The notes under the pieces were generated by a model. That model saw nothing but the letters and a program-made list of their open reading frames with translations. It did not search any database and was not told where the DNA came from. 64,000 nucleotides of DNA from Escherichia coli. Lineage in GTDB: Bacteria > Pseudomonadota > Gammaproteobacteria > Enterobacterales > Enterobacteriaceae. Positions 40,820 through 40,918 of this stretch are shown piece by piece. The position numbers and the translations under genes were made by a program. Position 1 is the stretch's first letter. Every line of letters starts with the position of its first letter. The stretch is from assembly GCF_050920415.1 (NCBI RefSeq), contig NZ_CP169309.1; one strand, 5' to 3'.

Positions 40820-40918
40820 GCCTGATGCGCTGCGCTTATCAGGCCTACTGGGTGAGTTGCAATATATTGAATTTGCACGATCTTGTAGGCCGGATAAGGC
40901 GTTTACGCCGCATCCGGC
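40820..40918. repeat. RIP-like BIME: REP, A/T-rich IHF-site-like core, inverted REP
   Basis: GCCTGATGCGCTGCGCTTATCAGGCCTAC ... TTGCAATATATTGAATTTGCA ... GTAGGCCGGATAAGGCGTTTACGCCGCATCCGGC. Confidence 0.7.

Follow-up and report, generated by a model that had tools for sequence, protein, structure and literature searches.

Both of the related intergenic repeats in the 64,000-nt stretch of Escherichia coli DNA analysed here (from contig NZ_CP169309.1; called the window below), one between livF and ugpB and the other between uspB and pitA, are best explained as copies of the BIME-1 element, the copy at 380-482 being a complete unit that was split by a full-length insertion sequence (IS) of the IS621 family, and we regard this joint reading as highly probable. 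Judged from the sequence comparisons below, the partner REP of the uspB-pitA unit is displaced, not missing; it was not lost, because it stands beyond the IS and outside a window that begins inside that element. The finding is correct but ordinary, since BIME-1 and the targeting of REPs by the IS621 bridge RNA are both already known, and the main result matters little beyond showing that an initial annotation made from the letters of the window had rightly recognised a textbook E. coli repeat and inferred the insertion of an IS. It does offer a clean natural example of bridge-RNA targeting by IS621, in which one 11-bp REP site is used repeatedly across strains, and the sibling livF site in the window is also used by an IS621-family IS in other strains. 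A duplication of terminator hairpins, described further on, is the only item that might repay more work.

The livF-ugpB unit lies at 40820-40918 and consists of a Z1-type REP (GCCTGATGCGCTGCGCTTATCAGGCCTAC, 40820-40848, plus strand), a 36-nt L linker (40849-40884, plus) that holds the core TTGCAATATATTGAATTTGCA at 40857-40877, and an inverted Y-type REP (GTAGGCCGGATAAGGCGTTTACGCCGCATCCGGC, 40885-40918, minus). Alignment with other units adds an A-side flank (GAGACAGGTTACAAATGTAAAATT, 40796-40819, plus) and a shortened B-side flank (ATGAAACGATGAGCAATCTGTAG, 40919-40941, plus), so that the unit with its flanks covers 40796-40941, 3' of the livF stop codon. Between that stop codon and the A-side flank, directly 5' of the latter, is a hairpin, AAGGAGTCAAAAGACTCCTT (40775-40794, plus), whose bases are paired in the RNA fold discussed below. 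The Z1 REP contains an intact IS621 target, ATCAGGCCTAC, at 40838-40848, with its CT core at 40845-40846, and the linker contains a predicted match to the IHF consensus, ATTCAATATATTG, at 40860-40872 on the minus strand. With its Z1 REP, linker and inverted Y REP, the unit has the sequence anatomy implied by the label RIP-type BIME that it had been given.

The second unit sits between the convergent genes uspB and pitA, at the very start of the window, where the IS, pitA and yhiN are found; livJ and panM follow near 35 kb, and livF, its unit and ugpB near 40.8 kb. Positions 1-379 (plus) are the 3' part of an IS621-family (IS110) element cut by the window start, comprising the C-terminus of its recombinase (3-272, which matches PF02371, with the stop codon at 270-272) and its non-coding right end (273-379). 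The last two bases (AC) of the split Z1 REP follow at 380-381 (plus), as identified from the K-12 empty site and the junctions, and then come the L linker (382-416, plus), with the core TGCAATCTATTGAATTTGCA at 390-409 and a predicted IHF consensus match, ATTCAATAGATTG, at 392-404 (minus), and a Y-type REP at 417-450 (minus). The B-side flank, ATGAACAAAGCGCACTATGTCAACAATCTGAA (451-482, plus), is common to other BIME-1 copies, at yajD-tsx, ridA-mgtA and yacH-lpdA, and is followed at 483-508 by GCGGGCCAGCTGACCCGCTCG and a run of T, which form the right-hand copy of the bidirectional terminator hairpin of uspB/pitA.

When the window was re-read, all coordinates in the initial annotation proved right, as did its estimate that the two cores are about 90% identical: the 20-nt cores are one base apart (19/20), which becomes 19/21 over the 21-nt span that it had used. 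It had also stated that both cores are followed by the same REP subtype, and the Y-type REP GTAGGCCGGATAAGGCGTT(T/C)ACGCCGCATCCGGC indeed stands at 40885-40918 and at 417-450. A search of the 64-kb window for the core, allowing up to 3 mismatches, returned two sites only, those of the livF and uspB-pitA units. The alignment of the two units to each other that had been suggested gave 85 identities over the 99 positions from Z1 to Y, and the similarity runs on into the flanks on both sides; the L linker, 35-36 nt long, can be aligned across five loci. A core of 20 nt is short, and its likeness might be ascribed to chance or to the AT-rich composition of intergenic DNA, but we give this almost no weight, since not one match at up to 3 mismatches appeared in 100 dinucleotide-preserving shuffles of the window, the similarity spans about 150 bp with both REPs and flanks, and the BIME-1 unit recurs at many E. 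coli loci.

The alternative that bears on the split itself is that 390-450 is a true half unit, whose partner REP was deleted, for example in an IS-associated deletion, or was never there. Within the window only the AC at 380-381 can be seen of that partner. The left part of the IS and of the split REP lie outside the window and were therefore read from a stretch of NZ_CP169399.1 (strain MFDS1022581; L001 below), which has 1 mismatch to the window over the 3,520 nt compared. There the IS is complete (L001 2100-3379, 1,280 bp), so what had been called an IS fragment is partial in the window, where the edge cuts it, but is not a fragment in the genome. The left junction reads ...AAATTGCCTGATGCGCTACGCTTATCAGGCCT|TGTATTATCC... 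(in short form ...TTATCAGGCCT|TGTATT...) and the right junction ...ACAGTATCT|ACATAATCTCTGCAATCTATTG... (in short form ...ACAGTATCT|ACATAA...), with a CT core at both, at L001 2098-2099 and at 378-379 of the window. All 29 nt of the split Z1 REP are kept: 27 nt, through the CT core (REP positions 26-27), abut the left end of the IS at about L001 2071-2099, roughly 0.9 kb before the window start, and the AC stands on the right.

The K-12 pitA-uspB region, which had been proposed as the place to check for a REP at the site of the IS, has a complete REP-core-REP unit at exactly that site. The spacer of MG1655 carries no IS and reads ...GCCTGATGCGCTACGCTTATCAGGCCTACATAATCTCTGCAATCTATTG..., with the empty site ...TTATCAGGCCT|ACATAATCT..., and when the IS was deleted in silico from NZ_CP169399.1, the resulting unit was identical to that of K-12 in 98 of 98 bases, which bears out the earlier proposal that an IS had inserted into one REP of an originally complete unit. 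The two junctions are alike in L001 and in four other strains with the uspB-pitA insertion (L005-L008). The position of the 27 REP nucleotides, the match to K-12 after removal of the IS and the identical junctions in other strains all speak against a half unit, which we consider very unlikely.

In matching genomes the PGAP name of the element is "IS110-like element IS621 family transposase", and its full open reading frame matches PF01548 (86.7 bits) and PF02371 (90.3 bits; L001 2292-3272). IS621 naturally targets ATCAGGCCTAC, which lies inside REP elements, and recombines at its CT core (PMC11208160), and the insertion point is on the 3' side of the REP, outside the inverted repeat (PMC3184786). 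The IS between uspB and pitA is at exactly that position, standing at ATCAGGCCT^AC with the target otherwise unchanged. Because the natural target of the IS621 family is this REP sequence, the position is set by the IS and is not accidental. In published work, the bridge RNA's loop for binding the target pairs with ATC(G/A)GGCCT of the bottom strand and with top-strand CTAC (PMC11208160). By inspection, the left end of the IS contains ATCGGGCCT at L001 2163, GTAG at 2191 and ACAGTATC at 2237, segments that equal the published bridge RNA specificity and from which, as guide segments only, a putative bridge RNA was recognised. In the published specificity, CTAC of the top strand is paired by the right target guide, and the left donor guide matches the right end of the IS. 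When the IS was searched against Rfam 15, no bridge-RNA family was found. By analogy with the published work on IS621, the insertion would have been made by the recombinase of the element, guided by its bridge RNA.

An IS621-family IS is present at the uspB-pitA site in 20 of 5,426 complete E. coli genomes. Among five copies fetched from this site there are three variants of the IS, 2.5-2.7% apart, and the flanks diverge by 1.1-1.4% from the source strain, or by up to 2.5% when the pair with EPSSH018, which has a different linker, is counted. Repeated independent insertion into one REP fits this better than one old event; recombination is a possible alternative. The IS of EPSSH018 (L008) is followed on its right by another linker, ACCAATAAACTGCAATACATTGAATTTATAC, which is 84% identical to the source strain over the 81 nt right of the IS and resembles the unit at fdhE-yiiF (L140), with a normal pitA flank; conversion or exchange between units is possible.

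The livF unit was examined by constructing the junction that IS621 would be predicted to leave there and searching for it in the same 5,426 genomes. The predicted junction was found, whole and contiguous, in 11 genomes, and in two of these the order was livF, the Z1 REP up to ATCAGGCCT, a 1,279-bp IS, ACTGGGTGAG... and ugpB. IS621-family copies were also found at the same BIME position at yajD-tsx, ridA-mgtA, yacH-lpdA, fdhE-yiiF and ybiJ-ybiA. The livF unit is entered by another element in strain N39, where IS1397 is in the loop of the Y REP (GGCGTTTAC|IS|TTACGCCGC; L010 3050-4500, equivalent to about 40906 of the window). A separate arrangement was seen in strain 7.1994/NIST0056 (L136), in which an IS621-family copy is bordered on the left by the REP downstream of avtA and on the right by the right part of the livF unit with ugpB, an order that points to rearrangement between two copies of the IS; in K-12, avtA and livF lie about 150 kb apart.

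A third BIME-1 unit is found in the window in the livJ-panM spacer (34975-35073, minus), where it is reversed and reads Y, diverged linker, Z1, with an IHF-like sequence, AATCAGTAAATTG, at 35021-35033 (plus) and an intact IS621 target at 35045-35055 (minus). Other REP sequences were also noted. A BIME-2-like cluster at 24274-24409 is composed of a degenerate Y REP, a long Z2-type REP (GCCTGATGCGACGCTGTCGCGTCTTATCATGCCTAC), a 16-nt spacer and an inverted Y REP, and its IS621 target has one mismatch (ATCATGCCTAC). Outside this cluster and the three BIME-1 units, more exact REP heads (GCCKGATGCG) stand at 10889-10898 (minus), 42539-42548 (minus), 50872-50881 (plus) and 58938-58947 (plus).

The presence of the units differs among strains. 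A contiguous livF unit is found in 4,736 of the 5,426 genomes, and in O157:H7 and some other strains the livF-ugpB segment (about 40758-40968) is replaced by about 1 kb with a gene for a TPR protein (L009 2910-3960). Strains of O157:H7 and O6:K2:H1 lack the uspB-pitA unit. In approximately 1,700 genomes, including O157:H7 (L135), the livJ-panM spacer has the ataRT toxin-antitoxin pair instead of a unit. No unit-free alleles were found at livF-ugpB or livJ-panM, where the alternatives were the TPR-protein gene and ataRT, and no empty allele was found at ridA-mgtA, where the unit is nearly fixed in E. coli. Some genomes (e.g., NZ_CP032892.1 4277530-4278589; H248-H250) have, in place of the ridA-mgtA unit, about 560 bp with the annotation "transposase".

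Alleles with and without a unit differ in one further respect. Without the unit, the uspB-pitA spacer is 70 bp long and contains one bidirectional terminator hairpin, AAAGCGGGCCAGTAAACTGACCCGCTCGTTTT, and with the unit, as in K-12, the hairpin is present twice, as a direct repeat with one copy on each side of the unit (window 483-508 on the right, L001 2024-2052 on the left; the further sequences compared were L002, L003, L004, L014, L131-L134, L141 and L142). BIME-1 stands between two direct copies of a local hairpin, 22-27 bp long, at uspB-pitA, yajD-tsx, ridA-mgtA and yacH-lpdA. Other species were scanned by means of a uspB motif, with other genera sampled at uspB-pitA only. Where pitA lies opposite uspB in these species, the spacer is mostly 50-140 bp, and spacers of 51-76 bp with one hairpin were found in Citrobacter, Klebsiella, Kluyvera, Pseudocitrobacter, Trabulsiella and two other Escherichia lineages. 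The spacer of a third Escherichia lineage is 67 bp, a comparison of length only, and in E. albertii NBRC 107761 the unit is present together with the two copies of the hairpin. Because the other genera and the unit-free alleles have one hairpin, the single hairpin is the older state at uspB-pitA, and the duplication came with the unit. The pattern at yajD-tsx is the same: the empty alleles have one hairpin and one occupied allele has two, the left copy having been lost from the occupied allele of K-12. The units at ridA-mgtA and yacH-lpdA are likewise flanked by duplicated hairpins specific to each locus.

To compare the left and right flanks of a single locus, their local-alignment score was set against those of 2000 shuffles. 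Scores of 35 at uspB-pitA, 32 at yajD-tsx and 30 at ridA-mgtA were each reached by 0 of 2000 shuffles, and the score of 18 at yacH-lpdA by 18 of 2000; flanks paired across different loci score 8-15. The same procedure gave no signal of flank duplication at fdhE-yiiF, livF-ugpB or livJ-panM, the latter two of which are unusable for this question because their alternative alleles carry other DNA. We suggest, tentatively and with some doubt, that BIME-1 units may come in at the hairpins of intrinsic terminators, which are duplicated whole in the process, so that a unit of about 150 bp ends up inside a direct repeat of 22-27 bp. One possible route is a staggered cut at the foot of an extruded hairpin, and a template switch at the hairpin is another. 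The patchy presence of the uspB-pitA unit in Escherichia fits with its loss by recombination between the hairpin copies, and if the idea is true, such recombination would explain how a unit can be lost cleanly. We found no description of hairpin duplication at BIME-1 in PMC1187871, PMC2817692 or bioRxiv 10.64898/2026.03.23.713779. If it is general and not already described, the duplication would be a footprint that constrains the spread of BIME-1, and a long target duplication spanning an entire terminator hairpin would provide a concrete, testable clue to that spread.

What the units do may involve DNA, RNA or both. Each unit examined has, at a corresponding place in the linker, a match to the IHF consensus WATCAANNNNTTR that deviates by a single base; one-mismatch matches to it have a background of 0.89 per kb in the window. 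IHF binding is known for the BIME-1 family (PMC3333891 and PMC3184786, citing Boccard & Prentki 1993 and Oppenheim 1993), and by extension from this family literature the L linker would be expected to bind IHF. REPs are not discussed in the IHF ChIP study of Prieto et al. (2012), and the NC_000913 annotation of the pitA-uspB and yajD-tsx spacers contains no repeat_region features. At the RNA level, the region 40760-40945 is predicted to form a long hairpin that has the linker at its tip (-64.3 kcal/mol, z = -4.3), and none of 200 shuffles was as stable. On a transcript, the REP pair would form a long hairpin in the liv 3' UTR and may affect the stability of the mRNA 3' end or termination, a role that is plausible because the region folds in this way and that is compatible with a role at the DNA level.

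It has to be considered whether the unit acts mainly as RNA, and not as a site for IHF on DNA. The Z1/Y hairpin in the 3' UTR would then block 3' exonucleases or modulate termination before the ugpB promoter, and the linker might also yield a small RNA of the ES036/CssrF type. The stability of the predicted fold is in keeping with such a role, as are the location of the unit, which begins about 40 nt past the livF stop codon, the resemblance of the Rfam ES036 consensus to the sequence of the L linker, and descriptions of REPs as mRNA stabilisers and 3'-UTR regulators (PMC3333891; bioRxiv 10.64898/2026.03.23.713779). However, a pure hairpin leaves unexplained why a motif of the IHF type is at a fixed position in all units, the Rfam scores are below threshold, and the two roles are not exclusive; we hold a mainly RNA-level function to be possible but less likely than not. 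For ES036 (CssrF), the scores were 28.6 bits at 40841-40883 (minus) and 27.5 bits at L001 3373-3414 (minus), with a gathering score of 37.6, and for naRNA4 (CssrE, REP325) they were 40.3 bits at 40888-40925 and 38.2 bits at L001 3420-3456, the position equivalent to the Y REP of the uspB-pitA unit, with a gathering score of 59.5. Since these scores do not reach the gathering values, the repeats are sequence relatives of the source of those RNAs and not members of the families. The Rfam hits to ES036, naRNA4, the L20 leader and mir-3836 were all sub-threshold and REP-derived, and were rejected as family members.

The sequence that the ES036 consensus matches is the L linker together with GTAGGCCT of the adjoining REP, and naRNA4 matches the hairpin of the Y REP, one REP hairpin only being matched by that model. 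The closer comparison is with BIME-1 itself, also named RIP (repetitive IHF-binding palindromic element) or RIB (reiterative ihf BIME), which is described as a z1 REP and an inverted y REP, joined by a long conserved L linker that often has an IHF site, and as a single-copy element of about 140 bp that is present or absent among isolates (PMC3333891, PMC1187871, PMC2817692). The units in the window resemble it in having one Z1 and one Y REP, inverted, a conserved L linker, a size of about 140-150 bp as one unit, A-side and B-side flanks that are conserved, locations outside genes at the 3' ends of these and presence or absence among strains. No structural difference from BIME-1 was seen, and the livF copy has a shortened B-side flank. 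The IS resembles IS621 in its PF01548 and PF02371 domains, its length of about 1,279-1,280 bp, its insertion at ATCAGGCCT^AC with CT on both sides, and the guide-like segments ATCGGGCCT, GTAG and ACAGTATC in its left end; it differs in that the copy in the window is about 2.6% from other copies at uspB-pitA, and its assignment to the family is by PGAP name, Pfam domains and junctions. IS1397 (IS3 family) is like the IS621-family IS in that it also targets this repeat, but it belongs to another family, enters the loop of the REP instead of its tail, makes a short duplication and is absent from the window.
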